Below are positions 48 to 39,396 of a stretch of DNA of 64,000 nt, piece after piece; the first letter of the stretch is position 1; every line of letters begins with the position of its first letter. The notes beneath the pieces are model-generated. The model did no database searches. It saw only the letters and a list, made by a program, of their open reading frames with translations, and was not told the DNA's origin. Made by a program: the position numbers and the translations under genes. The DNA comes from Naegleria gruberi (Eukaryota): the NCBI GenBank assembly GCA_000004985.1, contig GG738908.1; one strand, 5' to 3'.

Positions 48-410
48 TTATTCCTTAAATTCTTCCACAATCTTTGAAGCCACATCCATTTCCATAAGAG
101 GGTGTTCAAACACGTAGAAGAAACGAGGGAGTTCAAAAGCTGCCTCCGCTTCCTCTTTGATTTCCATCAGATAATTCACACATTGTTCCATTTTACCTTC
201 GAATAATAGAGTTTGTACTCCTTTCTTCATATTTACAAGTTCTGTACGTTTGTTTACCAAGGATTGCAACTTGGACCAAGATCTCCAAAATTTGGCCTTT
301 TCCAATAATGTGAATAAATTCCAAATAATAAAGATACCATCTTGGAAGGCAAATTCAAGTAAATTACTAGAAACATATTTCACCAATTCATCCAATCGTC
401 CTAAACCCAA
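48..410 (-). CDS. Hypothetical 120-codon ORF ending TAA at 48-50. Either a small independent gene or an unresolved terminal exon.
   Basis: Continuous reading frame with coding-like composition. There is no in-frame ATG until about codon 62 (MKKGVQTLL...). Simple splice joins from the upstream 631-codon ORF, tested by hand, introduce stops, so it is kept separate. Confidence 0.25.
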   Translation of the reverse strand: MGLGRLDELVKYVSSNLLEFAFQDGIFIIWNLFTLLEKAKFWRSWSKLQSLVNKRTELVNMKKGVQTLLFEGKMEQCVNYLMEIKEEAEAAFELPRFFYVFEHPLMEMDVASKIVEEFKE

Positions 411-414
411 ATCC

Positions 415-3400
415 TTAAAGAAAACTAGTTTGATAAAGAGGTTTGAACATTATAGTAGAAAAAAACTTACATTCTTGAATAAGGTCATAATATAAAGTAC
501 TCTTGACAAGGTCAATGAGACGATATTCCTCTCTTTGGTCCTCATGATATCTGAATGTCCAATTTTCAGCGTATGCTATTGCTGAATCACTATCTTGACT
601 TGCCTTCAGGACATCTAACTTTTTCTGTACAGACAATCCACAAAGTATGGCATAGAGTACGCAGAAAAATTTTGAATTCGTGTAAAATGTGACAGTTTTG
701 TGGAGGTAGATTTTCTCATCATCCAAGCATCCAAAGTTTGGAAGAATAAAGAATCTATCTATGACTTTCAGAGGAGAAAGCGTTTGGTAATTGGCTTCTC
801 CTAGTTTGGTTTTAGTAAGGCTCTTTTTTTGTCTATTGAAAAATGTATTATTGAGACGGAACATCTTACTTGGGAATTGATCTTTCATCTTGACAATATA
901 ATCATTGCATTTTCTAATGAAGGTGTCTTCTGAAGGAGTAGTAAAAACTGACATTCCTGATAAATAATCCTCTTCAATATCAATTGGTTTTACACATGTG
1001 AAGAGATAGTCAATCAGAACTTCAGTTTCAGGTCCATTCAAAATTAAAAATGCAGAATTTGGATTACTCAAATGCTTCATAATATCGTCGTAGTCTATGA
1101 ATTTAAACAATTCTTGGCAAACCTTCTTCTGGTCTCTTTCGTAATCAGTGTTTGCAGCATCATTAATGCTCTTGCTAATGTCTTCCTCTTGAGAAACCAA
1201 GACAAACTCATCCTCTATAACTGTGTGAGACATTACCATTTGTGAAAAGCTTTCTCGAGATGTTGCTTCAGCAATAAGGGGGAATAGTATCAATTTACCT
1301 GAAAAATCTGGTAACCATCTATAGGAAAGTTTCACTTTGGCTTGATTAAAACTGAAACCATTCTCCTTGTTGATATCCCAATAATTGCATCTGAGTCCAA
1401 GTCCATCCATAATATTTTGATATCTCAAGAATTCCTTATGCGACATTTGTGGATGAATGACAAAGAGTAAATCAAACTCTGAAGCTTTTTCTGAAATAAT
1501 GTAGTGAGGTATGATTTGAATATTCATCTTTCTGGAATGTGTTAGGAGATATTCTTGTCCATATTTCAGGTAGATTTCCAATTTCCAACACTTGTCAACA
1601 AAGAATGAAGCGTCTCTGGAGACCGAAATATCAAAAGTAATGGTTTGCGATTCTCCAACATCCAATTCAACCTCCTTCTCCAAGGCTCCATCGTGAAGTG
1701 TCAGCTTACAGTTAGTATCTTCGTAACCTGTTGTTCGACTGCATATTAAATCCTTATCATCCATTACTATTTTAACTTTAGCTAGTCTGTTCTTACTTGC
1801 TTTAAATGGTAGGTTTGTAGTATTGACCAAATCAAAACTGCATGTATGCTTCTCAGTTCTTCCCATTGTTTGTGGTGAATTAAAAGAGGAAACATTAATA
1901 GGGAGCAAACATTCTACACATTTCTCTAATCGAGCACCATTTTCAAATTCCTTTCCTAATATAGAGACATTGGAAGCTATTTTCATTATTGGTTCAGATT
2001 CAATCTTGAAATAAAATTTTTCATCGATGATAATAGATTCTCCTGGTTTGATGGCAGGTAAAGGTAGTTCATGACTGGAAACACCTGGGAATTTGAGGAT
2101 GGCTTTCAAATTTGGAAGCATTAGAGAACCATTGTTTTCTATTACAATGTTGGTAATGTAGCATTCCTCACCTGGAGACAAAACTCCATCATCAAACACT
2201 GGAACAATTTGAAAATCTTTCACAATTACATTATACAGTGAATTAGAATATTCAACAATTTCACCATTCTCATTAGTTACAATAAATAAAAATTTTCCAC
2301 ATTCATCCATTTCTCCAGGACTGGATGGATGAGGAGCTGTTCCATCAGCACCATTTTCACCATGTTTTCCATTCTCGGCGTGGGAAATCTCATTACAGCC
2401 AGCATCTCCACCAAAACCACCAATTCCTGGTCTACCATTAAATCCAGCATCACCTGGTTTCCCACAGCTTGAAAATGCTTTGAAAAAGACAAAGAGTTCC
2501 TAATATTGGTTAACGAGAAAAGAATATTTTTCTACATACACTGTGTTCAGACTCGATTACTATATTTCCACCCTTTCCAGAAGAGCCACCTTTTCCACTA
2601 CAAGTATTAATATCAATTGACAATTTCATTTTGAACTTACCCCTTTCCTGATTTAGCTCCATTTCCTCCGTTTCCTCCATTACCACCTTTACCAAAACTA
2701 CTGTTGGCTCCTGATCCTCCATTGCCTCCATTACCTCCATGTCCACCTAATTGAATTAGGAAATTAATATATTTACAATACTAACCATTTCCACCTCTTC
2801 CACCTATATAATATATATTAGTCAACTGTGTTAATTTACAATATCTCATAAAAATTACATACCATTTCCACCTCTAGCATCAACAATAAATAAATTATTC
2901 TCGTTAATTTCAAAATTAGCTTCAAAAGATCCATTCAAAGAAATCATGTTATCCTTAGAGAGTAATTTTAAATAAATATCTTGAGCATCTTCTCCATGAG
3001 ATCCATCACCACCAAGTTGACCTTTTGTGCCATCTTCTCCATCACATCCATTCAATCTTCTTCTATCAATCATTTCTCTTTCCACTTCATCTTTAAATTC
3101 AGCAATTATACCTGTTTTCCCACTAAATTCCACATTAAAATTTCTCCTTTAATTATTAACACTTACTTGCTTCCGAATCTTCCATCTTTTCCACTTTTAC
3201 CATTTGTTCCAATATTTCCTTTCTTCCCTCTACTCGAAAAGTGATAGAATTTAGTCAATCCAAATGATCGTGACTCAAAACTATGGAACGATAATTCACT
3301 ATTTTCTATCTGTCTTTCCAAATGATTTTTAATTTGATACCTTTTCCATAATTCTTGCAGTGATTGTTGACATTGTTCAAAGCCAATTCCCTCACAATTT

Positions 3401-3633
3401 TCCAACGTCTTGATTAGTTTATCTGGTATCACACATTCTCTATTAATTTTAATATGATTAATACTGTTATTATTTACATCCACAACTTGTGATGCTGACA
3501 ACTGATTATTCTCTTGATTATCATGCTGAATATTATTTTCATTATTTTGTGATGAAGATGATGATGTAGATTGTTGAAGCAAATCATCATTGTTTGGAGG
3601 AGTTGACGATGAAGCCTCCAAAGCCGTGATCAT
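415..3633 (-). CDS. Collagen-like (G-X-Y) and Gly/Asn-rich repeat protein with a large C-terminal globular domain, ~997 aa. Six exons: 3167-3633, 2863-3122, 2787-2804, 2641-2746, 2540-2597, 415-2499.
   Basis: ATG at 3633. Five introns of 44, 58, 40, 43 and 40 nt have GTAAGT, GTATGT or GTTAGT donors and AG acceptors. Every splice restores the G-X-Y register (for example GKDGRFGS|NGKTGII). Total exon length is 2994 nt, which is divisible by 3. Exons 2-5 encode GGRGGNG, GGHGGNGGNGGSG and GKPGDAGFNGRPGIGGFGGDAG repeats. Exon 6 is the 631-codon ORF in the track. Confidence 0.6.
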
Positions 3634-3778: not shown

Positions 3779-5844
3779 ATGACATCATTGCTAGATGTAC
3801 AGGAATTATTGAGAATTTGTTTTTCAGTTCCGAGTGGAAGTAATACATCATCGATTGAGAGTGTTGCCTCTCGGATCCGATCAGTGGATGATGAAGTTGC
3901 TTGTGATAGTTACTATAATGTAAGTTTGATCAAAGGCTTTGTATTAGGAACATTATCAATTTTAATACTTATAATAATAATTGAGAAGAGATTGGTAGGT
4001 TTGCAATGGAAATGCATATTTAAATAATTGATAATATTATTTTGTATTCTCTTAAAGCATATTGTATGTTTTTGATGAACATATGAATTAGAATATTCAA
4101 TATTTAACGTTTATTTAAGGATGTAAGTTTTTTGGAATGAGGTTGGAAATTCAATTATTTAAGGATGTATGTTTGTCGTATTTGTGGAGTTTTATTGATT
4201 TGCGTATTGTAGAATGTTTGTATTTCATTTGAAATAGTTTTTTAATAATATTAATTATCGAGTAGAGTGTTGGAGTAAGTTTAATTTAGGTTATTGGAAA
4301 CTTGAATATGCTAAGTTGACAGTAAGTAGTAATATTGGTATTGGAAATATTGAACTCGGAAATAGTTTGTAAGTTTTCATTATGGGATTATTAATGTACT
4401 TGTAGAATGCAGCGTATGCGGCAAGTTGTAAAGGAAGATTGGATATTTTGAATATTCTTGTAAAGAATGAGGCTGATATAAATTATAAAAACTCAACTGG
4501 AGCTAATTGGACTCCACTTCATGGAGCAGTTTATTACAATCAGGTAGTTGTTGTAAAGTTCTTGTTGGACCATAATGCAAATCCTCTTATCAAAGATAGT
4601 GTATGTAATTGTATTTTCAATTTGAAATATAATAAGAATGATAGAGGGATAGAACGCCTCTGAATCTTGCTCGAAGTTTACACAATCAAGATTGTGTAAA
4701 ACTCCTTTTGCAATGTGATTTTAAATTCTTGAAACCTCTCAAGATATGTGAAAGGGATAAGCTATTGAATTCATCAGTGGTTTGTTTCAAACCTGCTTTA
4801 AAACAAATCACCCCATATTTTTATGAACGAGTTGTAAATAATCAAAAACTTATAGAGTCTTTGGATGAAGAGGAACAGTCAATTCTTCAATGTATTATTA
4901 AGAAAATCCTCTATGAAAAAACAGAGGAAAGACAATTTGATGTCAAACAGAAAATGATATGTACATTTTTATTGAGTACTACGGAGACTGACCTTATATT
5001 TATGAAAAACAGTCTAATTAGGGATTTAACGAGAATGATTAACTTGAAAAATGTTTTGGATAACTTGGAAACAATAGAAAAATATATTGAAAGAGAAAAA
5101 ACATACATCTCTATTCAGAGTGAAGAAAGTTTATTGAGAGAGTTTAGAGAATATTGTCTAGACATGCTGGGAAGTTATTCACACACTCAAGATTTTGCGG
5201 AACATGTCGAAAAAGATATCAGAATGGATAATTACCTTAAATTGTTTTTCAAACGTAAGAGTATAAGAAGTATAGTAATCAATGAGGATCGAGATGTAAA
5301 TATTCAAAATCCATATGTAAAGTTATTCAATCATGAACCTTCCCACGATCTCAGAATACTTGTTGGTGATCAAGTAACATACTATTGTCATAAGACTATA
5401 TTGGAATCTACTAGTTTATACTTTACAGACCTATTCAAGAGCAGCAATTGGTCTGATTTCGATACCGATGTATACAAACTGGATGTGAATGATGAGGAAT
5501 CAATTATTGCCACTGATTACATAATCAGATATTGCTACGATTTACAAATTGACATTGAGCCTTCTCATTTGATTGGTGTAATGAAGGCATCCCACATGCA
5601 CAACATCAAGCCACTAATTACCCTCTGCAGCAAGAAGCTAGAAATCTCAACTGATAACTACTTCTCATTAATTGAGGGTCTATATGACTATATTGAGGAT
5701 CCACTCTTCTCCAAATTACATCAAAATATCATAGAGTTTGGAGTCAAGCATTGTAAACAACTCTTTTCACAGGATAAGAAGTCATGTAGAAAACTTCCAC
5801 CAACAACTTTGGAAGAAATATTTACCAGATTGGCCTCTCGTTAA
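3779..5844 (+). CDS. Ankyrin-repeat plus BTB/POZ-domain protein, ~511 aa. Three exons: 3779-3919, 4406-4600, 4645-5844.
   Basis: Exon 1 is ATG...DSYYN followed by a GTAAGT donor. A 486-nt AT-rich intron follows. The acceptor ttgtag|AAT opens exon 2 (NAAYAASCKGRLDILNILVKNEADINYKNSTGANWTPLHGAVYYNQ..., ankyrin repeats). A 44-nt intron (gtatgt...atag) follows. Exon 3 continues the ankyrin repeat (RDRTPLNLARSLHNQDCVKLLLQ). It then encodes a BTB fold (DLRILVGDQVTYYCHKTILESTSLYFTDLF...). Exon lengths are 141, 195 and 1200 nt, keeping the frame. Confidence 0.6.
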
Positions 5845-6012: not shown

Positions 6013-8829
6013 ATGCAACAACATATACACGAGGTAACCATATCGGAAACTCCTCTTTCTTCAAACACAACTAAACGAAACTATGCCGATGCATACACTC
6101 TATCAGATGAGGAAATTCAACCAAGCACAATAGTTCCATCTCCCTTTCATTCAGAAACCCTATTTGTGATACAGAATGAAGAGTCGTACATGACTGGGAA
6201 ACCAACATACGAAACAATTAGAATAGAAAGAAGACCTCAATTATCTTTAACAGCACCAATAGCTAATCATGGCGACTCAAGAGGACATTTATCCTTAACA
6301 TCCTCAATAGTTTGCACACCAAAGAGTTTAGATGGTCATCATGCTCTAGACGAAACTTCAACAACCAGATATAATCATCAATGCATTACAACCATTGGTC
6401 AACCAACTCTTCATCACGAAACCAGTCAAATCTCCACTCAACTGACTCCTCCTGAAGAAAAGAAGGTCAAATATTCCTCCTTCTTCATCAAACTCTTCTC
6501 ATTTACCAACATTTTTATTCTAATGTTTATTGTTCAGGGATTAATAGGAGTTGGAACGGCCTTCATCTTGACAAACTCGTCAGTGAATCATGTTCTCGAA
6601 CACAGTCGACAATATCAAAGATTACAATTACAAGTTTACTTTAATTCAGAGTTACAAAAATTCATTTCACAAATTTCCTCAATGACCAACCACATTTCGA
6701 AACAAATGCAAAGATTTAACTTGAATGATAATTTGGCAATGATTAAGATGATTGACAGTATTGACACTGCTTACAACTCAAAGATTGGAGCAGGTGCTTA
6801 TAGGTGGGCCAGATTTGATGATTTTTACTTTGCGAGACAATTTAATGAAACTGTTGATGGTTATGTTGTAAGAGTGTACAATCCAATTGTTACAAATTTT
6901 AAATATTACAATGTCAGTAAGAATCAAATGTCAAAGGCACCTACTGGGAGTAAGATGGATGTTCATGAATATTTAAAAGGAATTTCTGTAGATCCGTATT
7001 ATGATGGAAATTCAACCTATTATCCAAAGAAACGAGAATATTATTTGCCATATGATAAGGGAAATCAATCTGCTACTGATATCATGTGGTCTAACAGTTG
7101 GGCTAATTTTAATGATGAGGTCGTGATTACATTGAGCATTCCAGTGTTTAGTAATTATTCGATGAGTTTCTTTAAAGAATCGAATAATTCTTATTTGATT
7201 CAAAACATGTTACATCCAAAATATATTTCCATTCCTAATGGACAACTTTCCAAGTATCCCTATTTGAAGAGTCCTCAATATTTATTTGGCGTCTTGAGTA
7301 TTCAATTCTCATGGGAATCAGCATCAAAAACTATTCTAAATGGTTCAAATTACGGGACAGATCTTCTTAAAACCAATGATGCGATGGAATACAGCATGAT
7401 AGTTGACTCGAAATATAACTTGATTGGTAAAAGCAATGAAAACAAATTATTGTCAACTATCCATCAGGTTCTAAAGGAAAGAAATTTGCTTTCTCTCCTT
7501 TCATCTCCCTGTGGAAACATGACAAGCAATATTACAGAATCAGAAATAACTTCCTATGGAACTGTTTTCTTTAAACTCAATTCTAAAAACTATGGAAAGT
7601 TAGTAACAGATGCAATTGAGGTTGAAATTGCTCCAATTTGTGACAAGTATGGAATTGATTGGTTCGTGGTGGTAGGAAATTACAAATCAGTAGTCTTGAT
7701 TCAACCGAGTCAAGTTCCAGATTTTGTTGTAACATTTGTACTTGTATTTGTTCTACAGGCAATATTTCTAGTATTTAGTGTTGTGAATATTAGATTGTCC
7801 TTCTCTGCTGTTAAGAATCAAGCTCTTTCAATACTAAAATTGGGAAATGAAAAGCAGATAAGTTCCAGAAATGCATTGGTAAGAATGTGGAACACGTTTA
7901 AATCGTTCTCATTCTTTGTGGATATTAGAGAAATGAAATCTAAATTATCTACCATTAGAAATGGACTCTCCACTTTCTCCAAATATGTTCCAGAACTCGT
8001 TGTGAAGGCATTCACAGAGAGGGATGGACCTTTTGATAAGATTAATTTGGCGCAAAGGAACATGACTATTCTATTCACTGAATTGGTTGGTTTTTCAGAG
8101 CTTTCACATGGCATTCATGATGATTTTCTTCCATGCCTTATGACTAATTATTTCACGATTGTTTCAAAGGCAGTCAAAGAGGAGGGAGGTATGATTACCC
8201 AATTTATTGGAGATAGAGCTGTTTGTGTATTTAATGTTTATTGCCTTCCATTGGAAAATCATGAAATTAAGGCATGTAGGGCAGCTCTCAAAATAATGAT
8301 GAATATTGAGAATTTTAATAGAATTCATCTATCTGATTTGCAAGTTAGAGCTTCCATTACCTCTGATGAAAATATTCTTTGCGGAAATACTGGAAGCCAA
8401 TCGAGAATGAATGTTACTGTAATAGGTTCAAGTGTACCTATTGCTAAAGCTCTTCTATTCTTGAATAAGCATGTTGGAAAGAAAATTCTCATCCATGAAA
8501 AGACCTATCAGAAAGTTGTGGAAAATTTCGTTTGTAACTTTGTTGATTATGTTTGTTTTGAAGATTGCCATTTCCCAGTTTATAGCTTGGAAAGCATTTT
8601 TAGTTTACTAACAGAGGAGAAGGAAGAGATACATAATGCCTCATTTCAAGTAGAATCTGCCTTGTCAAAATGTGACTTTTCTTCAATTATTGATATTTGT
8701 AAAAAGTATGAAAGTAAGGATGAATCTCTAAAGAGAATGAGAAAAAGAGCTGAAACCCTTGAAAACGATTATTCAATGTGGAATTCTTGTGATGATTTCG
8801 ATTGCTCTTTTAAACTAAGAGTTAAATAA
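6013..8829 (+). CDS. Receptor-type class III nucleotidyl (adenylyl/guanylyl) cyclase, 938 aa. Two predicted TM helices flank a ~550-aa N-glycosylation-rich ectodomain, followed by a C-terminal cyclase domain.
   Basis: ATG at 6013. Hydrophobic segments are FFIKLFSFTNIFILMFIVQGLIGVGTAFIL and FVVTFVLVFVLQAIFLVFSVVNI. The cyclase-domain motifs are MTILFTELVGFSELS ... QFIGDRAVCVF ... CGNTGSQSRMNVTVIGSSVPIAKAL. The stop is TAA. Confidence 0.7.
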   Translation: MQQHIHEVTISETPLSSNTTKRNYADAYTLSDEEIQPSTIVPSPFHSETLFVIQNEESYMTGKPTYETIRIERRPQLSLTAPIANHGDSRGHLSLTSSIVCTPKSLDGHHALDETSTTRYNHQCITTIGQPTLHHETSQISTQLTPPEEKKVKYSSFFIKLFSFTNIFILMFIVQGLIGVGTAFILTNSSVNHVLEHSRQYQRLQLQVYFNSELQKFISQISSMTNHISKQMQRFNLNDNLAMIKMIDSIDTAYNSKIGAGAYRWARFDDFYFARQFNETVDGYVVRVYNPIVTNFKYYNVSKNQMSKAPTGSKMDVHEYLKGISVDPYYDGNSTYYPKKREYYLPYDKGNQSATDIMWSNSWANFNDEVVITLSIPVFSNYSMSFFKESNNSYLIQNMLHPKYISIPNGQLSKYPYLKSPQYLFGVLSIQFSWESASKTILNGSNYGTDLLKTNDAMEYSMIVDSKYNLIGKSNENKLLSTIHQVLKERNLLSLLSSPCGNMTSNITESEITSYGTVFFKLNSKNYGKLVTDAIEVEIAPICDKYGIDWFVVVGNYKSVVLIQPSQVPDFVVTFVLVFVLQAIFLVFSVVNIRLSFSAVKNQALSILKLGNEKQISSRNALVRMWNTFKSFSFFVDIREMKSKLSTIRNGLSTFSKYVPELVVKAFTERDGPFDKINLAQRNMTILFTELVGFSELSHGIHDDFLPCLMTNYFTIVSKAVKEEGGMITQFIGDRAVCVFNVYCLPLENHEIKACRAALKIMMNIENFNRIHLSDLQVRASITSDENILCGNTGSQSRMNVTVIGSSVPIAKALLFLNKHVGKKILIHEKTYQKVVENFVCNFVDYVCFEDCHFPVYSLESIFSLLTEEKEEIHNASFQVESALSKCDFSSIIDICKKYESKDESLKRMRKRAETLENDYSMWNSCDDFDCSFKLRVK

Positions 8830-19365: not shown

Positions 19366-22300
19366 TTAAATTGTTGTTGGATTATCAAAATGAACATCAA
19401 TAACATCAATAGTAGAGAAGGTCTTCATGGCAATGCTATATGGCTGTCTGTGGCCTATGGTCGGAGTTGTAGAATCACGATGTTCAAATCTAAAAGCATT
19501 TTGAGAAGAATTTGATTGTAATGTGGAGGAAGTCACAACTCTTTCGTATTGAGGATTAGGAGGAGCCTCCTTGTTGGTTTCCTTTGCATTATCCCTCTTT
19601 CTCTTTTCTCTCACTATAATACAGCCAACAGTTATTGGAATAGCGATGAAACAACCACAACAGATAAATATTGGAATCAAGATTACAGCAGCTGCTCCAC
19701 TACTGTCATTGCTAAGTGGTGCGTTAATGTCATTTGGAAGAGTTTGTTCAAGGTAATCAGCAGTTATTCCAACCATTGAATTGTTCATGAGGTTGGAAAG
19801 AGAGGATAAATCACACAAACAATGGACAATGAGAGTTTGTTCACTTGCTTTGATATCTGTCAATAATTGGAAAGATGTCTTGACAAATTTACAACTTGAT
19901 TCAGTTTCAAAATTTGTAAAATCAAGAGTCAAACTGCATCTGAATGTTTGATTGGTTCTTGAACTGATTGGTGCAATATAGGATGGAATTGGAATATTGA
20001 TATGAACACTTCCTGTCAATGAATTTGAAATGTTCAATTGTGAAACATATTCCTTTTTTACATCTTCAACTTTTCTTGATAATTTGGTTGGGAATTTGAA
20101 TAATGAATTTGCAATATTGACCATTTGAATGGTGGAAATCATGGAAACACTAAAAGAGACCAATGAACTATTAGAATTGGAGAAGGAAAAACTATTTGAG
20201 TTCAGTGCTGAAATAGATGTTTTTACAGCATTAATAGAAACCAAATTGGATGGTTTTTCACCTGGGAAAAAGTCTAAAGTTGTCAATTCTGTTTTAGTAC
20301 CCAAAGAAATAGCAGCATTCACAATTGAAGATGCCAATTTGATGGTTGATGTTTCTGGAATCTTTGATGCGACATTTACCAAAATTTCAGAAAGTGAATT
20401 TGAAGAATCTGATGACCAAACAGCTGCCTTACTTGAAATATCAACAAACTTGTTAATCATGTCAACAGTTTTCGATGTAGTTTCTTCTGTTAAGAATTGA
20501 GGTTTTGAAAGTACTTTGACTTGGTTCATGTAATTGGACATGTCTTCAGAAGTGACTGAATTTTGTGCAAGATTTGTATCTAATTGAGTAGAAAGAGATG
20601 TTGCTGTTGCATTTAAGGCGAGTGGAATAATTTTAGAAATTTCACTAATGACAGAATTATTTTGGGCCACTGTACCGATATTAGAAACAATTGAAATAAC
20701 CAAATCATTGCTCTTATGGAAATCATTTGTTGGACTTGATAACGAGTTTGAAAGAGAGGAAACTACATCATTTGTGAACAAACTATTGGTACTGAACTCG
20801 ATGACGTTTGTCAACTTGATAGGCATTGTTAGTTTACCACCAGTTTTGGTGTCTGAAAAGAGAATTTTGAAATTTGAACCAAATTTTGTAGTCTTGAAGG
20901 ATATTGGGAAGGATACCGATGTTGCAACGATACTATCTTCATTAAGAAGTGTCATACTAATGGTAGAGAGTGGATTTCCCATGGTACAAGAAAGCTTTCC
21001 AATTGTAAAACCAACTTCAAGTTTAGAAGGAGTGATGGTACAATCTTTGAGTTTGATTTGATCAGATAGAGAATCTTGTACAGTGACTGGAACTGTAACA
21101 TCTGTAACGTCGCTGGTTCCCATCAAGGAGAGGGTAAAGTATTTACCAACATTTTGAATTGTTGAATCTTTGGATTTGAGTTTTCCGTTTTTATATTGCA
21201 ATGGGAGTAAGTATCTCGTACCACTAACAAAAATTGAAGCTAATGGATATCTTTCAAATTGTGAACCAATGTAACGAATATCAACTTGGCAATTAGAAGC
21301 TTGGGATGTCAAAATATCCAAAAAGTAAGTTGTAGATTCTTCCAAGGATGGAATAACATTATTAACTTTCATACCAGTTAAAGTTGCTCCAAGTACGTTG
21401 CATGATGATACATCTATGCGAGTATCAGGGATGAATGAAACCACTTGGGTGGATTTTCCAATGACAACTGGTTGATTTTCAGAATTGGTCATGAGGTTCA
21501 ATAAATCAGGGGCTGGTGCTACTGAATAATAATATGATTGGAGACATGCAACTGTAAAGGTATGATCAATGGTCATATTAAAATCAGGGTAAATTGTATT
21601 CACTGGTACTGAAACAGTTGCAGAGGAAGTCTCTAAACTAATCTTCCTGTACACGTGATTATTTTCCAACAGCAGGAAAACAATTGATTTTTGTAAAGAC
21701 TCTGCACCATAATAATTCTTGCAAGTGAGTGTAATACTAGGAATTCTGGATGGCTTATACACAATCAGTGATTCCTTGATCAAAACAGTTGGAGCAATCA
21801 TTTGTAATTGGAATGGAAGTGTTGTACCATCAATAAGTTCTATTGTGAATGACAAATTCTCACTGAATGTTTTTGGTTTGATAACAATTGCTTTTTCAGT
21901 TGTTTCCCAATTAAAATAATAAGTTGGATAGGTAGAATGGACTTGGAAGGAAACAGTTCTGGCGTCGACACATTCTTGATTCTCAGCGAAGAATTGGGCA
22001 AGGGGTATTGTTGCTTGCGTAGAGGTCATTACAATCTTGGTTGTTGGAACTTTGAGTAGTAATTTTGGATAGGATCCTTCGATTGGGAACGAAAGGTTTT
22101 TGGTGTATGTTAAACCAAAATTAGAAATCACACTGACAGACATGTCAATAGTAGAAAGCTTTAAAATATCTGAAACATATGGGAAAGTCCATTCCAATTG
22201 ATTTTGGGAATTTTGAATGGCATCACTCACTAATTTGTTAGACATTAAGGCAACTGAATTTCCTGTCAATTCCCAAGTCATTGCTTGGAAATTTCCATGT

Positions 22301-25300
22301 TCTGGTTGAGAATATTCAGCCTTAACATTGCTTTCAAAACATCTATTCATCGATTTGGAACTGATCTTTCCATTGGAAATTTTAGCAGAAACTCCATCAT
22401 AATAATGTTGGAAGGAGCTCAAAAAGGCACTCACATCTAATTGGACGGAAACGTATTTGTCAGACTTTGGATTCGACCAAAATACGTTGAACATTATTGG
22501 TTCTCTTGGACTGAAGATTGCATCTGATTGAGATACATATGCTTTGATGGTATATCTGTAACTGTGCAGGTCAGAATTCAATCTATTTTCTGTTACATAA
22601 CATAGCATTGGATAAGAAGTGGAACTCTTGGTGACTAACTTGTCAATATTTCCAAATATTTTCTCGCAATCCACCTTTGAACTAGTGTATCTGTAATTAC
22701 TATTGGTAACAATGCTGAAAGCTGCCAATTTTTTTCCAATTCCCCAAAGATTTTGATCCATATTCAAGTCAACTGAATAATCAAAATAGGTAGCTTGATC
22801 TGATTCCAAGAAATTGAAACAATCATCACCAAAGTGAGCTCCTATACAACCAGAACACGATTGTCCAGTGTAATAGTCGAGACATTGTTCACAATAAGTA
22901 CCATTGGATCTCGTATTGCATTTACAAACATTGTAGGAGGTACAAGTTCCTCTATAATTACAAACTGATTCTTCAGAGTGTGGTACATTGTCACATGTCC
23001 AATTTCCACACTTTGACCCATAGTAACCGGTAATGCAATCTTGGCAGGTATCTCCCTTAATAGTTTCCGATTCACAGACACAGATGTTTACAGATTTACA
23101 ATGACCTCTTGCTGAACAAACGGCTGGTGAAGAATTTTCAATTCCTCCACATGTCCATTTTTCACAATGAGTGCCATAATAACCATCTTCACAAGTTTGG
23201 CAATTACTACCAATGGATTTTGGTCTCGTACAAGAGCAAGTATCGAGAGCTGTACATATACCATTTCCATTGCAAACATTTGGATCCATGAAATGAGTTC
23301 CATTACATGTGAATTGTTCACAATTTTCACCAAAATATCCATCAGTACAGTTACAGTTATTGTAATCAACACATGTACCCTTAGAGGAACAGACTCTTGG
23401 TTGTGAGCTATCAGTTCCGTTACAACCAAAACTTTGACACATGCTTCCGTAATAACCAGTCTTGCAAGAACAAATACCAGGTTTCACACAAGTACCTTGC
23501 CCAGAGCAAACATCAGTTTCGTTTGCTACTTTCCCAAAACAAATTGGAAGTTCACAATTTTTACCTGCATAACCAGTACTACATTCACACAAGTCAATGT
23601 CCGTACATTTTCCATGGTTTGAACAGACACCATAACTACTCTTGGAAATTCCAAAACATGCGGCTTCAATTTCACAAGCATCACCATAATAACTACGATC
23701 ACAAGCACAGGTACTATTGAAAAAACAAGTACCTCTTCCATGACAAGATCCTGAATTGTAGCTTGACAAATCTTCACAAAAACCATAAGGAACACAAGTA
23801 CCTGAATCACTAGGAGAAATGGATGCAGAACAAGAGCAAGTGTTTGGACCAGTACATTTACCTTTTCCATTGCATACATTAGGGTTGGTAGCTTCGAGAT
23901 CATAACAAACAGGAGTATTACAGGAGGCCCCTGTGTAGCCACTTGCACATGAATATGTTGGCCAGTAGCCATAATGGTACCAAATGGAATCAACAACAGC
24001 GCCACAAGACATGGATGCTCCAACTAAATCGAGGCCACTAGGGACGTACTCAATATTACCACCCCAGCAACCATTTGCACCGTAGCTGTTCTTATTAGTA
24101 TCAAATCTAATACATGCCAATGTTGTGGATGCCCAAATCCAGAAACCATAGTCTCTATACTCGTGATGAATTTTAGTGATGTATTCATCATCAGCAAGTG
24201 TAAATTCAGTTTCCCGATTATCGCTGCTACCAATTGATTGACTGGTACCATCTCTAAACCTGAATTCGATACCGTACACATAGTCACTACTGTGTTTAAT
24301 TTTCATTCCTTTGATAAATTTAGATGTTGACTGCGGTGAACTCGTTTTACCTCCGTAGCTTGCACTACTTGTCACATACTGATATTCTGTACCTAAATAA
24401 TAACCATTAGAACTAAAAGACAAGGCTTTCAACTCTTTGGAAGTACCAGAAAGTCTAATGTAAATGATTGGCTTTTGCTCGCCTACATAATTATTGGAAT
24501 TCACAATAGGACTTGATGTTGAGACGATAAAACTATCAGTAATATCGTATTCTGTTGATAGTTGTTGAACTTGAATGATTTTTCCTTCCAGATGTCTGAA
24601 TCGGAATTGATACACACTCTTAGATTGAGCTTGCATAGTTCTGCTATTACCATCCACAATTGAATAAGGATCAGCGCTTGTACCAGTAATGACTGTTGCA
24701 ATGGTATTGTCTCGCTCAATTGACAATGAATGGATCTTGAAATAATCTTGTTTGAACTGGGAAATTTGAATGAAATTCTTTGTGAATGTAAATGTTGTCT
24801 TGATATAATCATATTGCAGAAGGAAGATATTTGGAGAGATTGCATTTCCATTCAAAAAACAATCAGCTTCACATGACAAGAGAATGTTGAGCTTCCCCAA
24901 TGAATCGAACTTAATTTTTGGAGTGGGAATCATGGCAGATGAACTGTGGAAGACTTTCTGAGAATGGACATAGGATCCATCCTTTGGATTTAACAATAGA
25001 ACCCATAGGGAAGACTGATGAGGTAAATATTCCTTATTTTCCCCATCAATGATCAGTTGGAATTCTTGTGTATCAAAGAACGAAACAACAACCCGATCAT
25101 ATACTACCGAGTAGTGAATAGCCATAACTTTACACTTTGTTGTGTCTTCACAACCTGCTATTGCCTTCTTTAGAATAACTTGATCTTTGTAAATGATCAA
25201 GTAAATTTGATATCCTTTCTGCATAATGAAGTATCTCTTTCCGCTTACATTGTCAATGTACATTGCTTGAATAGAATATCCAATCAAATTACTAAAAGGG

Positions 25301-25833
25301 GTGACAGATTGTACAACTCCTGCTGATGAAAGAGTTGCCATAAATGGTATATTCTTAAAGCTTGAGAATGTCTGTGAGGTGACTTGGAAACGTCCAATAC
25401 AAACTGGATACTGAGCAACAAAATACCCAGTCAACAATATATCTGCTTTGGAATTGAGGAATGTAATAGATTCACCCTCAAGTTGTGCTCCTCCACAATC
25501 ATCCTTTATGTTTACCTCCAGGAAGGAATTAAAAGTTTCACCAGAACGAACATTTCCCTGAATCATCACTCGTGAGGAATTTAAACTTGGAAGTGGAACC
25601 TTAATCAACATGTAATGTTTTTCATTATTGTCGGAAATTACATCCACAAAGGACGAACCCTCCCCAAGTGTTTTAATGGTACTGTCAAAATTCTTGATGA
25701 GGCCGTATTTGCAGTTTGGTGCAATCTTGGTCATATCTGAGCAAGGTTCCCCTAAACCTGCCTTAATCACATCAAATATTGAACATGATACAATTAAGAA
25801 AATTAGAACAAACGGCAAGACTGTTGTTCTCAT
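19366..25833 (-). CDS. Paralog A, 2155 aa. Signal peptide, N-terminal domain, jacalin-like lectin domain, ~13 tenascin-type EGF repeats, Ser/Thr-rich stalk, one TM helix, and a short cytoplasmic tail ending PTTI.
   Basis: ATG at 25833. The signal-like N-terminus is MRTTVLPFVLIFLIVSCSIF. The jacalin-like stretch is YVYGIEFRFRDGTSQSIG...GLDLVGASMSCGAVVDSIWYHYGY. EGF repeats have the form CxGxGxCxxPxxCxCxxGYyGxxC. The TM helix is AAAVILIPIFICCGCFIAIPITVGCIIV, followed by REKRKR. Confidence 0.8.
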   Translation of the reverse strand: MRTTVLPFVLIFLIVSCSIFDVIKAGLGEPCSDMTKIAPNCKYGLIKNFDSTIKTLGEGSSFVDVISDNNEKHYMLIKVPLPSLNSSRVMIQGNVRSGETFNSFLEVNIKDDCGGAQLEGESITFLNSKADILLTGYFVAQYPVCIGRFQVTSQTFSSFKNIPFMATLSSAGVVQSVTPFSNLIGYSIQAMYIDNVSGKRYFIMQKGYQIYLIIYKDQVILKKAIAGCEDTTKCKVMAIHYSVVYDRVVVSFFDTQEFQLIIDGENKEYLPHQSSLWVLLLNPKDGSYVHSQKVFHSSSAMIPTPKIKFDSLGKLNILLSCEADCFLNGNAISPNIFLLQYDYIKTTFTFTKNFIQISQFKQDYFKIHSLSIERDNTIATVITGTSADPYSIVDGNSRTMQAQSKSVYQFRFRHLEGKIIQVQQLSTEYDITDSFIVSTSSPIVNSNNYVGEQKPIIYIRLSGTSKELKALSFSSNGYYLGTEYQYVTSSASYGGKTSSPQSTSKFIKGMKIKHSSDYVYGIEFRFRDGTSQSIGSSDNRETEFTLADDEYITKIHHEYRDYGFWIWASTTLACIRFDTNKNSYGANGCWGGNIEYVPSGLDLVGASMSCGAVVDSIWYHYGYWPTYSCASGYTGASCNTPVCYDLEATNPNVCNGKGKCTGPNTCSCSASISPSDSGTCVPYGFCEDLSSYNSGSCHGRGTCFFNSTCACDRSYYGDACEIEAACFGISKSSYGVCSNHGKCTDIDLCECSTGYAGKNCELPICFGKVANETDVCSGQGTCVKPGICSCKTGYYGSMCQSFGCNGTDSSQPRVCSSKGTCVDYNNCNCTDGYFGENCEQFTCNGTHFMDPNVCNGNGICTALDTCSCTRPKSIGSNCQTCEDGYYGTHCEKWTCGGIENSSPAVCSARGHCKSVNICVCESETIKGDTCQDCITGYYGSKCGNWTCDNVPHSEESVCNYRGTCTSYNVCKCNTRSNGTYCEQCLDYYTGQSCSGCIGAHFGDDCFNFLESDQATYFDYSVDLNMDQNLWGIGKKLAAFSIVTNSNYRYTSSKVDCEKIFGNIDKLVTKSSTSYPMLCYVTENRLNSDLHSYRYTIKAYVSQSDAIFSPREPIMFNVFWSNPKSDKYVSVQLDVSAFLSSFQHYYDGVSAKISNGKISSKSMNRCFESNVKAEYSQPEHGNFQAMTWELTGNSVALMSNKLVSDAIQNSQNQLEWTFPYVSDILKLSTIDMSVSVISNFGLTYTKNLSFPIEGSYPKLLLKVPTTKIVMTSTQATIPLAQFFAENQECVDARTVSFQVHSTYPTYYFNWETTEKAIVIKPKTFSENLSFTIELIDGTTLPFQLQMIAPTVLIKESLIVYKPSRIPSITLTCKNYYGAESLQKSIVFLLLENNHVYRKISLETSSATVSVPVNTIYPDFNMTIDHTFTVACLQSYYYSVAPAPDLLNLMTNSENQPVVIGKSTQVVSFIPDTRIDVSSCNVLGATLTGMKVNNVIPSLEESTTYFLDILTSQASNCQVDIRYIGSQFERYPLASIFVSGTRYLLPLQYKNGKLKSKDSTIQNVGKYFTLSLMGTSDVTDVTVPVTVQDSLSDQIKLKDCTITPSKLEVGFTIGKLSCTMGNPLSTISMTLLNEDSIVATSVSFPISFKTTKFGSNFKILFSDTKTGGKLTMPIKLTNVIEFSTNSLFTNDVVSSLSNSLSSPTNDFHKSNDLVISIVSNIGTVAQNNSVISEISKIIPLALNATATSLSTQLDTNLAQNSVTSEDMSNYMNQVKVLSKPQFLTEETTSKTVDMINKFVDISSKAAVWSSDSSNSLSEILVNVASKIPETSTIKLASSIVNAAISLGTKTELTTLDFFPGEKPSNLVSINAVKTSISALNSNSFSFSNSNSSLVSFSVSMISTIQMVNIANSLFKFPTKLSRKVEDVKKEYVSQLNISNSLTGSVHINIPIPSYIAPISSRTNQTFRCSLTLDFTNFETESSCKFVKTSFQLLTDIKASEQTLIVHCLCDLSSLSNLMNNSMVGITADYLEQTLPNDINAPLSNDSSGAAAVILIPIFICCGCFIAIPITVGCIIVREKRKRDNAKETNKEAPPNPQYERVVTSSTLQSNSSQNAFRFEHRDSTTPTIGHRQPYSIAMKTFSTIDVIDVHFDNPTTI
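19742..20482. repeat. Inverted-repeat arm 1, ~740 bp, inside the 3' part of paralog A. Near-identical at the DNA level to 31549-32282.
   Basis: Identical runs of up to ~85 nt include synonymous positions, for example ttaacaagtttgttgatatttcaagtaaggcagctgtttggtcatcagattcttcaaattcactttctgaaattttggtaaatgt. The antisense shadow ORFs 20129-20500(+) and 31493-31888(-) translate to near-identical peptides. Confidence 0.75.
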
Positions 25834-26236
25834 ATTGAGTTGTTGAGTGTTTTGTTTTTCGGATTTTGGAGAAGGGACGCAAAGTCGATGAGGCCAACAC
25901 TTTTGACACTCAATTCACACCCACACAATTTGTGGTTGCATATTTCCTGTTGTTTGGTCCACTGTAAATAGTGTTAAAAAGGGTGCAGATGGGCTCACAT
26001 AGAGTCCACCACAGCCCTTCTCCAAAATTGTAAATCTTGAAAAATAACAACTTATTAAGACTTGATTACAGTTGCCAAGGGCGCAAACAGTAAATGAAGG
26101 AAATTGCCAGCACGCAAACAACAACATTTTGAGGTGTGAATGCACAGTTTGTCACAGATGTTTGCCTCTTCGTCAATGCGTCTTCTTTTGAAGCAAAACT
26201 TGAAAAAAACAACAACACAAACAAACAACACTCAGA
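25834..26236. promoter_or_regulatory. Shared divergent promoter region between the start codons of paralogs A and B (~400 bp).
   Basis: It lies between ATG 25833 (minus) and ATG 26237 (plus). It contains no long ORF apart from track artefacts. Confidence 0.4.
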
Positions 26237-29200
26237 GATGAAACTTCTTCATCATCACTATTTAACTTTCCTGTTATTGTTGTGGGTAGCGAGCTGTGTA
26301 GTGGCTGTGACCTTAGAACCATGCGCGGACATGACCAAAACAGCTCCTTATTGTAAGAATGGCCTCACTAAGAATTTTGAAAAATCCATCAAGGTATTTG
26401 ATGGTAGTTGGGAATTAAGGGATTCAATTGCTGACCAAAATGAGAGACACTATATGTTAATTAAGGAAAATTCATCAAAGATTATCATTCAGGGAAATCA
26501 ACGTTACGGCTCAAATTTCACACAGTTCTCATCTACCACAATTCAAGATGATTGTGGACAAGCAAATATTGAGGGAGAATCAATAAGGTTTTTGAACTCT
26601 GATGGGCAAATTCTATTGAGTGGTTGGTTTGTGGCCAGTGAATCTGTTTGCATTGGTGATTTTCACGTGTATCCACAACAAAATTCTTCAGCAAACTCAA
26701 CAGATCTCGCAGAAACTAGTATCCCTTTTTTAGCAATTCTTTCACCAATTACTGCTGCTGTGCAATCAGTGGTAACTCTTACGGATATGATTGGGTTCAG
26801 CCTGCAATCCTTGGATATAGATCAATATACTGGTAAGATTTACTTGATTATGCAAAACAAGACTCAAATCAACTTGGTGACACTCTTCAAGAATCAAATC
26901 ATTCTCAACCAGCAAATTGCAACCTGCCAAGATCCAACCAAGTGCCAAGTCTTGTCTATTCACTTCTCTGCCTTGTATGAAAGAATTATTGTCTCTTTCT
27001 TTGAGAAGTCTTCCTTTCAATTAACAATTGCTGGCGATATGAAAACGTATTCATCTTATCAATCAGCTCAATGGGTACTATTGCTCAATAAGGATGGATC
27101 CTATATTCACAACCAAAGAATCTTTCATAGCTCGGACTCTGTTATGTCCACACCTAAAATCAAGTTTGATTCTATTGGAAAACTCAACATTCTCCTTATT
27201 TGTGAAAGAAATTGTTACCTTAATGAAGATGCTGTTTCACCAAATGTATTCCTTCTTCAGTATGATTATGTAAACACAGTCTATTCATTTGTGAAGAACT
27301 TTATTTCTACAACTGGAAATTTCACATTCACCATTCATTCACTCTCTGTTGAAAGAGATTTAACACTGACTACTGTAATCTCACCACTTAATTCAGTTTC
27401 GTATACAATTAAAGATGTAGCAGGAAGATCTATGCAAGCTGTAAATAATACTGTCTATCAGTACAGATTCAGACATGTTGATGGAAAGATTATTCACATT
27501 CTTCCTCTCACTTCTGAAGTTGATTTGACTAATGCATTCCTAGTTTCAACTTCCAGTCCAGTTGTCAACACTAACAACTTTATAAGAGAACAGAATCCAA
27601 TCCTTTACACAAGAACATCACCAATTACATACAAGACAGAACTTTTTGTTCAAGCATATATTTATTATGGCAATAGAGATAATGAAAAGGACTATACCTA
27701 CATCTCGAAAAGTCCTAGATATGGTGGTGATAGTGGAGCTGGAGATCCAACAACCCAAAAGGTGTCAAGAATTGATATTTTGGGTGATGGATACGTTTAT
27801 TGCTTCAAATTCACATACACCGATGGAGCTATCAAATATTTTAATGAAGCAAGATGTATTGGTAGAGTTATCACTGCCTATTTAGACAATGATGAATATA
27901 TCAAGGAGATGAGCCACGATTATACCACCTTTGGGAGTGCGCAGATATTGCTTTGCATTTCGTTTAAAACAAACAAACAAACCATCAATTTTTTATGTGA
28001 CAACAAAGTGAAATTTGTGGAATATGTCCCAGAAGGATTAGAGGTAATAGGGTTTGGAGTTAAAAGTGGTTATTGTATTGATTCAATCTCCTATATGTAT
28101 GGCTATACCAATACTTATTCATGTGCCAACGGTTACAGTGGTGATGACTGTTCAGCCCCAGTATGTTATGATGTTGATTCTTCCAGTAAGTTGGTGTGTA
28201 ATGGAAATGGTCGATGTGCAGGTCCTAATAATTGCTCCTGTATGTCATCAAGTGTTAACACTGACTCTCACAATTGTGCATCATATTCATTTTGTAATGA
28301 TGTTTCATCCAACAGCGTGGCCATATGTTCTGGAAGAGGATCATGCCATTACAATGGAACATGTAGTTGTGAAAAAGGTTACTACGGAAATGAATGCTCA
28401 ATCGAAGCACAATGTTTTGGTATTCCAAAGAGCAGTTATGGAACTTGCTCTAATCATGGTAATTGTTTAGACATTGATACTTGCGAATGTAATGTAGGTT
28501 ACACTGGAAGAAATTGTGAACTCCCAATTTGTTTCGGAAAGGCGGCTAACACTTCAGGTATTTGTTCTGGACATGGATCTTGTGTGAGGCCAAGTGTCTG
28601 TTCTTGCAAAACTGGTTACTATGGTCCAAAATGTGAATATTTCTATTGTAATGGAACTGCCAATGCTTCTCCATCAGTTTGTTCATCAAAAGGTGGCTGT
28701 ATAGACTACAACAAATGTGTTTGTAAGGAAGGTTACTATGGTCCAAACTGTGAGCTCTATAATTGTAGTGGAATTGTGTATAATGATCCAAATGTTTGTT
28801 CAGGAAACGGACAATGCATTGGAGTAAATAATTGCGCATGTACCACTCCAAGATCTAGTGGTCAATCGTGTGAAAAATGTGATTCTGGTTACTTTGGGTC
28901 TCACTGTGAAAAGTTCACATGTGGCAACATTGAGAGCACCTCTCCAACCGTATGTAGTGGAAGAGGCATTTGTAAATCTTTAAATACTTGCATTTGTGAA
29001 AATGACAATATTAATGGAAAGCTTTGTGAAAGTTGCATCACTGGTTACTATGGGGAAAAGTGCACCAATTGGACATGTAATGGTATTCCAAGTACTAATA
29101 GTTCAGTTTGTAATTATAGAGGAGTTTGTTCTTCGTATAACAATTGTGTATGTAATAGCAGATCATATGGCACATATTGTAATCAGTGTATTGGATTCTA

Positions 29201-32200
29201 TGTTGGACAAACATGTGGATCATGTGCTGGATCTCATTATGGTGATGAGTGCTACAACTTTTTAGAATCAAATAAGGCCCCATATTTGAATTATCAAAAT
29301 GGTTTCATAATTATAACCAATACCAATTTTAGATTCCAGCAGGGAACTGTTGATTGTTCTCGTGTGTTTGAAAATGTTGGTGATATTTCTAAAGTTATCA
29401 ATGTTGTAACTTGTAAAGTTACAGAAATTGGACTCAATTTGGATAAACGAAGTTATAGATATACTATTGAAGTAACTATACCAAATAACTATGCAATTTT
29501 CAATCCAAGAAACCCTATCAGCTTCAACGTTATGTGGTCATCAACTAAAGCTCCTATTTATCAAATGGTCAACTTGGATATAAGTGACTTTTTGAAGAAT
29601 GAACAACCTTATTATCGTGGAGTATATTTCCAAGTGACCAATGGAGTTGCTAGTGGTAAAACAATTAACAGATGTTTTGAAACCAAAATCAAGGCATATT
29701 ATTCTCAGCCAGAATTTGGTACTTTCCAAAGCTTAACTTGGAATTTGACTGGAAACTCTGTATCATTAATGAAAAACAAATTAGTGAGCGATGCCATCCA
29801 AAATGCTCAAAACAAGCTCGAGTGGACTTTCCCTTACATTCCAGAGCTATCTCACTTTGGTTATATTGAATTATCTGTCAGTGTTGTCACTAATTTTGGT
29901 TTGAAATATACTTCTAGTGATGCGCTGAGCGTGAGTGGAAGCTACAGAAAAACACCTTACTATTTCCCAAGAACAACATTCCTTCTCACATCTAACGAAC
30001 TTACAATCCCATTATCACAATACTTTTCAGAAAATCTGGAATGCATTGATGGAAGAACTATTTCATACACAATTTCTAAACATTTCAAAATATTGGATAG
30101 TTACTTTTCTTTGGAGTTTACAGAAAAGGATATTGTCTTCAAAGCAAAGACCACTTCTATGTATATGTTTATTACAATCCAAATGATAGATGGTACTCAA
30201 ATTCTACTCAATTTCAATTTCAAACCTCCAACAGTTTCAATTAAGGAAACTGTAGTTGTTTACAAAGAATCAAGTGTTCCAACTTTGACTCTTTCTTGCA
30301 AGTATTATTATGGAAGAGATCAAATTTCCATTCCACAGATGATGTTAATAATGGAAAATAATCAAGTTTATAAGAGAATTATGATGGCTCAAACAGACGA
30401 AACTGTTTCATTGCAAGTCAATCAATTGTATCCTTGGTTTGATTTAACGATTCCTCACACCTTCACTGTTGCTTGCTTGCGGTCAACTGATTATGCTCTT
30501 TCTGACCTTTCTTCTCTTTCAAGAGTTATTACAAACTATAACAGTATCCTACCAGTTGTTGGAATTACAACACAAACAGTTTCCTTTATATCTGAAACAA
30601 TTAATGATTATTCTTCATGTAAGGTCCTTGGTGCAAGTTTGATTGGTTTAAAGTCAAATACCATTCCATTCCCAGAAATTTGGACTACCTATTTCCTTGA
30701 GATTTTGACAACTCAAGCTCCAAACTGCCAAGTTGATATTTCATATATTAATTCTCAAAATGAAAAATATATGTTAGATAATGTTTCTGTGAGTGGTTCT
30801 AAATATGTACTTCCATTACAATTTTTAGAAAGAAAGCTCAAATCTAGGTTGACAACAATTTCAAATCTCTACAATTATTTCACACTTTCCTTAAAAGGAT
30901 CCAATGATTTAGTTGAAAAAACTACCAATTTAATTGTACAAGATTCATTGTCTTCCATTGTTAATGTTGCTGATTGTACCATTTCTCCTTCAAAGATTGA
31001 AATTGGCTTTACACTTGCAAAACTTTCATGCTCAATATCTCCACCCTCCACATACTTAATGACACTTTATCATGAAGATTCTATTGTGGCAACTTCGTAT
31101 TCCTCACCAATTTCATTCAAGTTTTCAAAGAGTGGTAAGAATTTCAAGCTTCAATTCCTAGATGAAAAAACAGGAGGACAAACAACTTTGCCAATAACCC
31201 TGATGAACCAAATTGAGTTTAGTACAAGCAGTTTGTTTACAGATGAATTGGTTTCATCTATATCAAGTAGTCTGGCAAATTCAAGTTCAGATTATTTCAA
31301 GAATAATGATTTGGTAATTTCAATGGTTTCTAATTTCAATTCTCTTTCTTCAAATAATTCTATTGTTATGGGAGAAATTCAAAGAATAATTCCAGCTGCT
31401 TTAGCTGCCACTACTTCTTCAGTTTCCACCCAACTGGATGTCAATCTAGCCCAAGGATCTGTGACATCCGAAGCAATTTCTAAATATATCAATCAAGTCA
31501 AAATTCTTTCAAAACCTGAATTCCTTACTAAGGAAAGTACAATGTCAACTGTTGATATGATTAACAAGTTTGTTGATATTTCAAGTAAGGCAGCTGTTTG
31601 GTCATCAGATTCTTCAAATTCACTTTCTGAAATTTTGGTAAATGTTGCAGCAAATATCCCAGAAAGTTCTACTATCAAATTGGCATCTTCAATTGTGAAT
31701 GCTGCTATTTCGTTGGGAACTAAGGCCGAGTTGACAACTTTAGACTTTTTCCCAGGTGAAAAACCATCCAATTTGGTTTCTATTAATGCTGTCAAGACTT
31801 CAGTAGCCTTTTTGAATTCGAATAGTTTTTCCTTCTCCAATTCTAATAGTTCATTGGTCTCTTTTAGTGTTTCCACGGTTTCCACCATTCAAATGGTCAA
31901 TATTGCAAATTCATTATTCAAATTCCCAACCAAATTATCAAGAAAAGTTGAAGATGTAAAAAAGGAATATATTTCACAATTGACCATTTCAAATTCATTG
32001 ACAGGAAGTGTTCATATCAATATTCCAATTCCATCCTATATTGCACCAATCAGTTCAAGAACCAATCAAACATTCAGATGCAGTTTGACTCTTGATTTTA
32101 CAAATTTTGAAACTGAATCAAGTTGTAAATTTATCAAGACATCTTTCCAATTATTGACAGATATCAAAGCAAGTGAACAAACTCTTATTGTCCATTGTTT

Positions 32201-39052: not shown

Positions 39053-39124
39053 GGGACCATGGTCTAGTGGTATGATTCTCGCTTTGGGTGCGAGAGGCCG
39101 TGGGTTCGATTCCCACTGGTCCCC
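39053..39124 (+). tRNA. tRNA-Pro (anticodon UGG).
   Basis: GGGACCATGGTCTAGTGGTATGATTCTCGCTTTGGGTGCGAGAGGCCGTGGGTTCGATTCCCACTGGTCCC. It has a 7-bp acceptor stem, the anticodon loop CTTTGGGT and the T-arm GTGGGTTCGATTCCCAC. It is followed by a ttttatttttg Pol III terminator. Confidence 0.9.
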
Positions 39125-39323: not shown

Positions 39324-39396
39324 GGGGTCATGGCGCAGTCGGTAGCGCGTAGGTCTCATAATCCTAAGGTCGTGAGTTCGATCCTCACTGACCCCA
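39324..39396 (+). tRNA. Elongator tRNA-Met (anticodon CAU).
   Basis: GGGGTCATGGCGCAGTCGGTAGCGCGTAGGTCTCATAATCCTAAGGTCGTGAGTTCGATCCTCACTGACCCCA. The anticodon loop is CTCATAA. The acceptor stem GGGGTCA/TGACCCC pairs fully. A T-run follows. Confidence 0.9.

Follow-up and report, generated by a model that had tools for sequence, protein, structure and literature searches.

Near one end of a 64,000-nucleotide stretch of Naegleria gruberi NEG-M contig GG738908.1 (assembly GCA_000004985.1), which is the whole of the DNA analysed here and is referred to as the window, a row of open reading frames (ORFs) on the minus strand encodes peptides that include runs with glycine in every third residue. The question raised by this locus is whether these ORFs are fragments of one spliced gene and, if so, whether the product is a collagen, as a first-pass annotation had proposed for a six-exon gene at 415-3633. 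According to the comparisons described below, it is strongly supported that the ORF fragments constitute one bona fide spliced protein-coding gene, while the collagen reading was not supported. Our combined explanation is a seven-exon spliced gene, a product of the DUF7932 family and a non-collagen glycine-rich domain, most likely of the polyglycine II/polyproline II (PGII/PPII) type, and we assign it a probability of about 0.75.

Four minus-strand ORFs (3163-3633, 2855-3133, 2510-2746 and 415-2310) are arranged head to tail, with a fifth (48-410) next to them. The first-pass annotation regarded the four as parts of one gene, and this was borne out, since AT-rich GT..AG introns join them in one open frame. 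The corrected gene spans 48-3633 (minus strand), from ATG at 3633-3631 to TAA at 50-48, and comprises seven exons and six introns; its spliced coding sequence (CDS) of 3,315 nt, equal to 1,104 codons, is open throughout and encodes 1,104 amino acids (aa). All six introns have GT..AG borders, lengths of 39-59 nt and 18-26% GC, in a window that is itself AT-rich (34.7% GC), and their removal restores the frame.

Exon 1 (3167-3633), which ends in phase 2, encodes the low-complexity N-terminus together with the first G-X-Y run as far as ..GRFGS. It is followed by intron 1 (3123-3166; 44 nt, GTAAGT..TTTAG), which equals intron 1 of the Naegleria lovaniensis orthologue in position and phase. Exon 2 (2863-3122; 260 nt) leads to intron 2 (2804-2862; 59 nt, GTATGT..ATATAG) and then to exon 3 (2786-2803), a micro-exon of 18 nt that encodes (G)G-R-G-G-N-(G) and runs from phase 1 to phase 1. 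Intron 3 (2747-2785; 39 nt, GTTAGT..AATTAG), equal in position and phase to N. lovaniensis intron 2, is the only intron with a length divisible by three, and its retention reads directly into a TAG. Downstream are exon 4 (2641-2746; 106 nt) with its G-G-X runs, intron 4 (2598-2640; 43 nt, GTAAGT..TTGTAG; N. lovaniensis intron 4), exon 5 (2540-2597; 58 nt), intron 5 (2500-2539; 40 nt, GTATGT..ATTAG, phase 0; N. lovaniensis intron 5), and exon 6 (471-2499; 2,029 nt), which carries the last Gly runs, the three predicted beta-sandwiches and most of the C-terminal region. Intron 6 (425-470; 46 nt, GTAAGT..AACTAG), which corresponds to N. lovaniensis intron 8 with the junction DLIQE/FFFKDLGL, precedes exon 7 (48-424; 377 nt), which ends in the TAA stop and contributes 125 residues that are highly conserved in the orthologues (P0001 and P0002). 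For this last intron, an acceptor at 415/414 was also tried and rejected, as it brings a TGA into frame; the one at 426/425 leaves the frame open and fits the orthologues (..DLIQE + FFFKDLGLGRL..).

This model departs from the first-pass annotation in several respects. The stop codon taken there as the end of the gene (417-415) lies inside the sixth intron (470-425), which had been missed, and the gene has seven exons and ends at 48 instead of six exons and an end at 415. The 18-nt micro-exon encoding GGRGGN does exist, but at 2786-2803 rather than 2787-2804. The introns on its two sides had been placed one nucleotide off (2805-2862 has no AG end, and 2747-2786 starts with GGT), and the micro-exon would then be out of frame (..GWKRWKC..); the other three of the five proposed introns were canonical as given. 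Intron lengths had been put at 40-58 nt, and the introns are indeed short, but they measure 39-59 nt, which is a normal size in the window. The claim that each splice restores the G-X-Y register is correct for introns 1-4, which are inside G-X-Y runs and keep the triplet register on splicing, but not for introns 5 and 6, which are outside G-X-Y sequence.

The C-terminal part of the protein was used for a homology search, as the first-pass annotation had recommended, and the 738-aa query retrieved N. lovaniensis C9374_009181 (P0001; 1,162 aa, "DUF7932 domain-containing protein") with 52% identity over 99% of the query, together with an N. fowleri fragment. Overall identity to the N. lovaniensis orthologue is 52-54%. 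The alignment of these two proteins is gap-free at all six junctions (GRFGS/NGKTG, RGGN/GGRGGN/GGHGG, SGK/GG, ESxxS/E and DLIQE/FFFKDLGL), the N. fowleri and Willaertia magna proteins are likewise colinear across the junctions, and inclusion of the micro-exon gives alignments without gaps to N. lovaniensis and W. magna. Mapped on its own locus (L001:6001-10032), the N. lovaniensis protein is interrupted by eight GT..AG introns, with which five of the six window introns (1, 3, 4, 5 and 6) agree in aligned position and phase. These shared introns differ in length (44/61, 39/72, 43/51, 40/65 and 46/83 nt in the window and N. lovaniensis, respectively), and their sequences are unalignable.

As well, N. 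lovaniensis possesses an intron of its own seven codons beyond the position of window intron 2, and therefore a micro-exon is present in both species (18 nt and 21 nt), in offset positions. Both micro-exons are located in the GGN-coding repeat (2747-2862 in the window and L001:6855-7005), with one intron position shared and one lineage-specific per species. Because window introns 2 and 3 carry identical flanks (gaggtggaaatg/GT ... AG/gtgga), intron gain or sliding within a repeat is suggested for this site.

The Gly-rich domain is 65% identical between N. gruberi and N. lovaniensis, the highest value of all protein regions, and 54% of its identical residues are encoded by different codons. Moreover, 64 of the 65 aligned glycines are retained, and the codon differs at 38 of these. 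Strong protein-level constraint on the Gly region, with purifying selection acting in the spliced frame, is thus strongly supported by the codon comparison. The locus could alternatively be no spliced gene at all, but a decayed pseudogene, or its Gly-rich frames could be accidental off-frame translation, a case raised by the first-pass annotation itself. Such a reading could draw on the absence of the exact 1,104-aa product from a collection of 15 billion proteins, yet each frame change falls on a canonical AT-rich GT..AG segment of 39-59 nt, five introns keep their position and phase in N. lovaniensis, synonymous change is plentiful under strong purifying selection, and homologues range from bacteria to animals. 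The colinear junctions, the shared introns and the codon-level purifying selection therefore exclude a pseudogene or accidental frames for practical purposes. Since neighbouring N. gruberi proteins are present in the same collection, the public N. gruberi model of the 48-3633 locus is probably missing or different.

Other candidate GT..AG introns of 44-61 nt that join long open frames were found by a scan of the window. One of them (52408-52451) joins ORFs 51263-52411 and 52435-53703, and further candidates are located at 61768-61815, 61897-61954, 23862-23910 and 28161-28221. Because these candidates have similar sizes, introns of 40-60 nt are taken as the local norm. N. gruberi has an average of 1.7 exons per gene (PMC8296547). 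The structure of the gene at 48-3633 is ordinary, and its sole unusual point is intron density, with six introns in one gene and four of them within the sequence coding for the Gly runs.

The only significant Pfam match of the product is DUF7932 (PF25560) at aa 396-473, with 31.5 bits against a cut-off of 27, and the assignment of the product to this uncharacterised family is strongly supported at the sequence level. In the family, a Gly-rich module is followed by DUF7932 and more beta-sandwiches, and in many eukaryotes then by an alpha/beta part and a helical C-terminus; the window protein has this architecture, with the Gly-rich module upstream and further beta-sandwiches downstream of DUF7932. 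The motif GGxGGxGGxGG precedes DUF7932 in 76 of the 90 members whose upstream sequence is long enough to judge. A profile of the Gly-rich and DUF7932 region collected 66 proteins, and a profile limited to the 773 C-terminal positions, searched exhaustively, matched 219 cluster representatives at E<=1e-3. When a 21-sequence alignment served as the query of a word-index homology search, no proteins other than the two from Naegleria came back.

Named relatives include W. magna KAL9642439.1, the N. lovaniensis paralogue XP_044550565.1, the nemertean Lineus longissimus XP_064649595.1, the rotifer Adineta vaga and the fungus Apiospora phragmitis among eukaryotes, as well as members from Bdellovibrionota, Bacteroidota, Gammaproteobacteria and Myxococcales, and all of the named members are annotated as 'hypothetical'. 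PH, FYVE, WW-like or SAM modules surround the Gly-rich/DUF7932 core in P0090, P0093, P0096, P0138 and one member of A4, with L. longissimus XP_064649595.1 among them. No paper mentioning DUF7932 was found in the literature searched, the search for viral relatives found none, and NCBIfam and PADLOC searches returned nothing, apart from NCBIfam Scl matches that were weak and far below cut-off. The genes adjoining the two bacterial homologues P0008 and P0004 are inconsistent: a 2OG-Fe(II) oxygenase gene lies directly downstream of P0008 (L004:7957-8574), and phospholipase D (PLD)-like and endo/exonuclease-phosphatase (EEP) genes lie downstream of P0004 (L002:7981-9821).

The Gly-rich domain region (2311-3312, minus strand; aa 108-366) includes introns 1-5 and carries seven runs with Gly in every third residue, each of 4-9 triplets and three of them of the G-G-X type, which are predicted to lie on a small beta-sheet core. 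Runs of at least four triplets hold 45 triplets in total; 2,000 shuffles averaged 3.8 and never exceeded 19. The region is composed of 28% Gly, 10% Asn and 2% Pro, and conserved non-Gly strands (DIYLKL, LFIVDA, NIVIES and LFVFFKA) stand between the runs. Run lengths are identical among orthologues. Among 50 sequences from bacteria and eukaryotes, extending to animals, some 35 Gly columns reach a conservation of 90% or more. Models of the orthologue were made with AlphaFold2 (AF2). The full-length protein reached a mean predicted local distance difference test score (pLDDT) of 82.4, and the Gly domain alone, modelled as a monomer, was compact, with a pLDDT of 92.2 and a predicted template modelling score (pTM) of 0.81. 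In the latter model, a beta-sheet of about eight strands is accompanied by about 150 Gly-run residues that DSSP assigns to neither helix nor strand, with a pLDDT of 95-99.

What kind of domain this is can be judged from the same data. A collagen-like protein, in which, as in bacterial Scl and C1q-like proteins, the G-X-Y region trimerises into a triple helix joined to a globular C-terminal domain, would account for seven periodic runs well above chance; the family profile also matches collagens in a PDB sequence search (E down to 9e-14), the weak Scl matches point the same way, and a 2OG-Fe(II) oxygenase adjoins one bacterial homologue. The window protein itself, however, has no match to Pfam Collagen (PF01391), even at E<=1, and a long uninterrupted Pro-rich G-X-Y tract was not found, as the longest run has 9 triplets, Pro makes up 2%, and conserved non-Gly strands break the runs. 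Length differences between orthologue runs are likewise absent, the Gly of the G-G-X runs is invariant from bacteria to eukaryotes, the monomer is predicted to be compact (pLDDT 92), a single-sequence PDB search matched only synthetic GGS linkers, and no signal peptide for secretion is obvious. The PDB profile matches to collagens were discounted as similarity by composition. The top PDB sequence match was 8zxl, 'spindlefibril/axialfibril', and literature on it was not traced. A collagen is thus highly improbable, and the Gly-rich region is, as modelled, a conserved, fixed-length and compactly folded domain rather than a collagen. A beta-solenoid or beta-roll, as in two-partner secretion (TPS) domains, repeats-in-toxin (RTX) rolls and curli, would leave the gene and the family as they are, but it is unlikely: DSSP strands are absent from the approximately 150 high-confidence Gly-run residues, the runs lack the alternating hydrophobics that a solenoid core needs, and the RTX nonapeptide periodicity GGxGxDxUx is not visible in the sequence. 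For instance, a 61-residue stretch of the window protein contains only four hydrophobic residues, of which three fall within the final four positions, and a stretch almost without hydrophobics is therefore a poor fit to a beta-solenoid core, although it agrees with the PGII rule given next.

A PPII/PGII bundle is defined here as left-handed helices of three residues per turn that pack through Gly, with phi/psi of about -75/+150. According to previous studies, GGX triplets are the building units of PGII sandwiches, with Gly as their only immutable residue, and PGII/PPII examples include the snow-flea antifreeze protein, the phage S16 tail-fibre tip, Obg, ALK/LTK and modelled PE_PGRS proteins (PMC7830552; bioRxiv 10.1101/2023.11.25.568672). 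The window Gly domain shows the sequence pattern expected of PGII (PMC7830552), namely GGX/GXX runs, invariant Gly and variable X. Structural similarity of the domain to a solved PPII bundle was not found. We tentatively propose, at somewhat less than even odds, that the Gly module of about 260 residues represents an undescribed ancient domain family, which would form a PGII/PPII bundle on a small beta-sheet and would be secreted in bacteria and intracellular in eukaryotes.

Several points weigh against the combined explanation. The splicing, use of the micro-exon included, was deduced from sequence; intron 2 of the window is lineage-specific and has no counterpart in N. lovaniensis, and the N. 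lovaniensis gene model is itself a computational annotation. The AF2 models were made on the N. lovaniensis orthologue and not on the window protein, and the PPII geometry was read from high pLDDT in residues that DSSP leaves without helix or strand. In addition, a few homologues match Pfam Collagen weakly, at about the threshold (P0090, with 29 bits against a cut-off of 27.2), which favours collagen.

The AF2 model of the orthologue predicts a disordered N-terminus, the Gly domain of about 260 aa, three immunoglobulin (Ig)-like beta-sandwiches, the first of which is DUF7932, and an alpha/beta and helical C-terminus. In the window, the three predicted sandwiches (aa 372-636) correspond to 1501-2295 on the minus strand, with the DUF7932 match (aa 396-473) at 1990-2223, and the C-terminal part (aa 637-1104) corresponds to 51-1500 on the same strand, with intron 6 inside. 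The first-pass annotation had described a C-terminal domain of about 690 aa as unassigned; the region is longer than that, contains the DUF7932 match and is predicted to consist of Ig-like sandwiches and an alpha/beta/helical region. Its last 470 aa or so are modelled as two alpha/beta parts, the first a flavodoxin-like beta-alpha unit, with a variable disordered insert between them and a helical bundle at the end. Within the flavodoxin-like unit, the Asp of FDLLFV is invariant throughout the family and W-D, G and H residues are nearly so, and no specific structural relative of the alpha/beta and helical region was found. No signal peptide was obvious in the 1,104-aa product by inspection, and from this we infer that the protein is intracellular.

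Taken as a mechanism, the combined explanation runs as follows. Six ordinary short spliceosomal introns would be removed from the minus-strand 3633-48 transcript to give the 3,315-nt CDS. In the protein, short G-G-X and G-X-Y segments would pack on each other and on the small beta-sheet as a self-contained unit, most likely as PGII/PPII-type helices with invariant Gly inward and variable polar X outward. The Gly domain could then sit at one end of a stalk of Ig domains and act there as a rigid module for recognition or assembly, with the C-terminal region presumed to act in ligand binding or assembly. Our best guess is an intracellular scaffold, or an adaptor or recognition protein, a guess that agrees with the membrane- and protein-binding modules which other eukaryotes fuse to the same core.

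Several other features were observed in the window. An ankyrin-like ORF (4439-4663, plus strand) is located just upstream of a BTB/POZ-domain ORF (4708-5844, plus strand), and the two may form one spliced ankyrin (ANK)-BTB gene at 4439-5844. Two window ORFs are identical to N. gruberi EFC38342.1 and EFC38347.1; the former, a 'predicted protein' at 6013-8826 (plus strand), carries an adenylate/guanylate cyclase catalytic domain at aa 682-835. A divergent pair of paralogous giant ORFs (19366-25833 on the minus strand and 26136-32699 on the plus strand; 2,155 and 2,187 aa) was also identified, each with a Jacalin-like lectin domain and teneurin-type EGF repeats. Adjacent genes for tRNA-Pro(TGG) (39053-39124) and tRNA-Met(CAT) (39324-39396) are present on the plus strand.

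The gene-structure result is routine, in that the genome is published, the short introns are normal and the orthologue is already annotated as a hypothetical DUF7932 protein. It yields a corrected seven-exon N. gruberi model whose exact product was not in the protein collection searched, and it serves as a caution that G-X-Y periodicity by itself does not make a collagen. The protein is an additional member of a known, uncharacterised family, and its Gly-rich domain is moderately interesting. If the PPII/PGII bundle is true, it would be a new architecture among the few natural PPII-bundle folds, with no Pfam model or solved relative; it would add to a structural class that is very small and of interest to protein designers, and would place that class in use inside eukaryotic cells.

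Compared with known systems, the window protein is closest to N. lovaniensis C9374_009181 within the DUF7932 family, with which it shares domain order and intron positions. Bacterial members of the family are shorter and possess signal peptides, and in most of them the C-terminal region is missing; PH, FYVE, WW-like or SAM modules, absent from the window protein, are found in some eukaryotic members. The Ig-like sandwiches resemble those of CARDB, FW (NBR1/ILRUN) and HAP2 domain III at the level of a generic fold, with 11-15% identity, which implies no common function. Similar to collagen repeat proteins (PF01391; Scl1/Scl2), the Gly domain has short runs with Gly in every third residue and a weak profile similarity; unlike them, its runs have 4-9 triplets, many of them G-G-X, and a fixed, conserved length, in a monomer predicted to be compact. 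It differs from the beta-solenoid adhesin and secretion domains (TPS domains of EtpA, HMW1 and FHA; RTX beta-rolls) in the lack of sequence similarity and of a hydrophobic core pattern, in its few predicted strands and in its presumed intracellular eukaryotic context. The glycine-rich PPII/PGII bundles, such as the Obg N-domain and the ALK/LTK glycine-rich domain, are alike in their GGX/GXX runs, immutable Gly and variable, presumably outward X, and the Gly runs modelled here, with high confidence but neither helix nor strand, resemble them as well.

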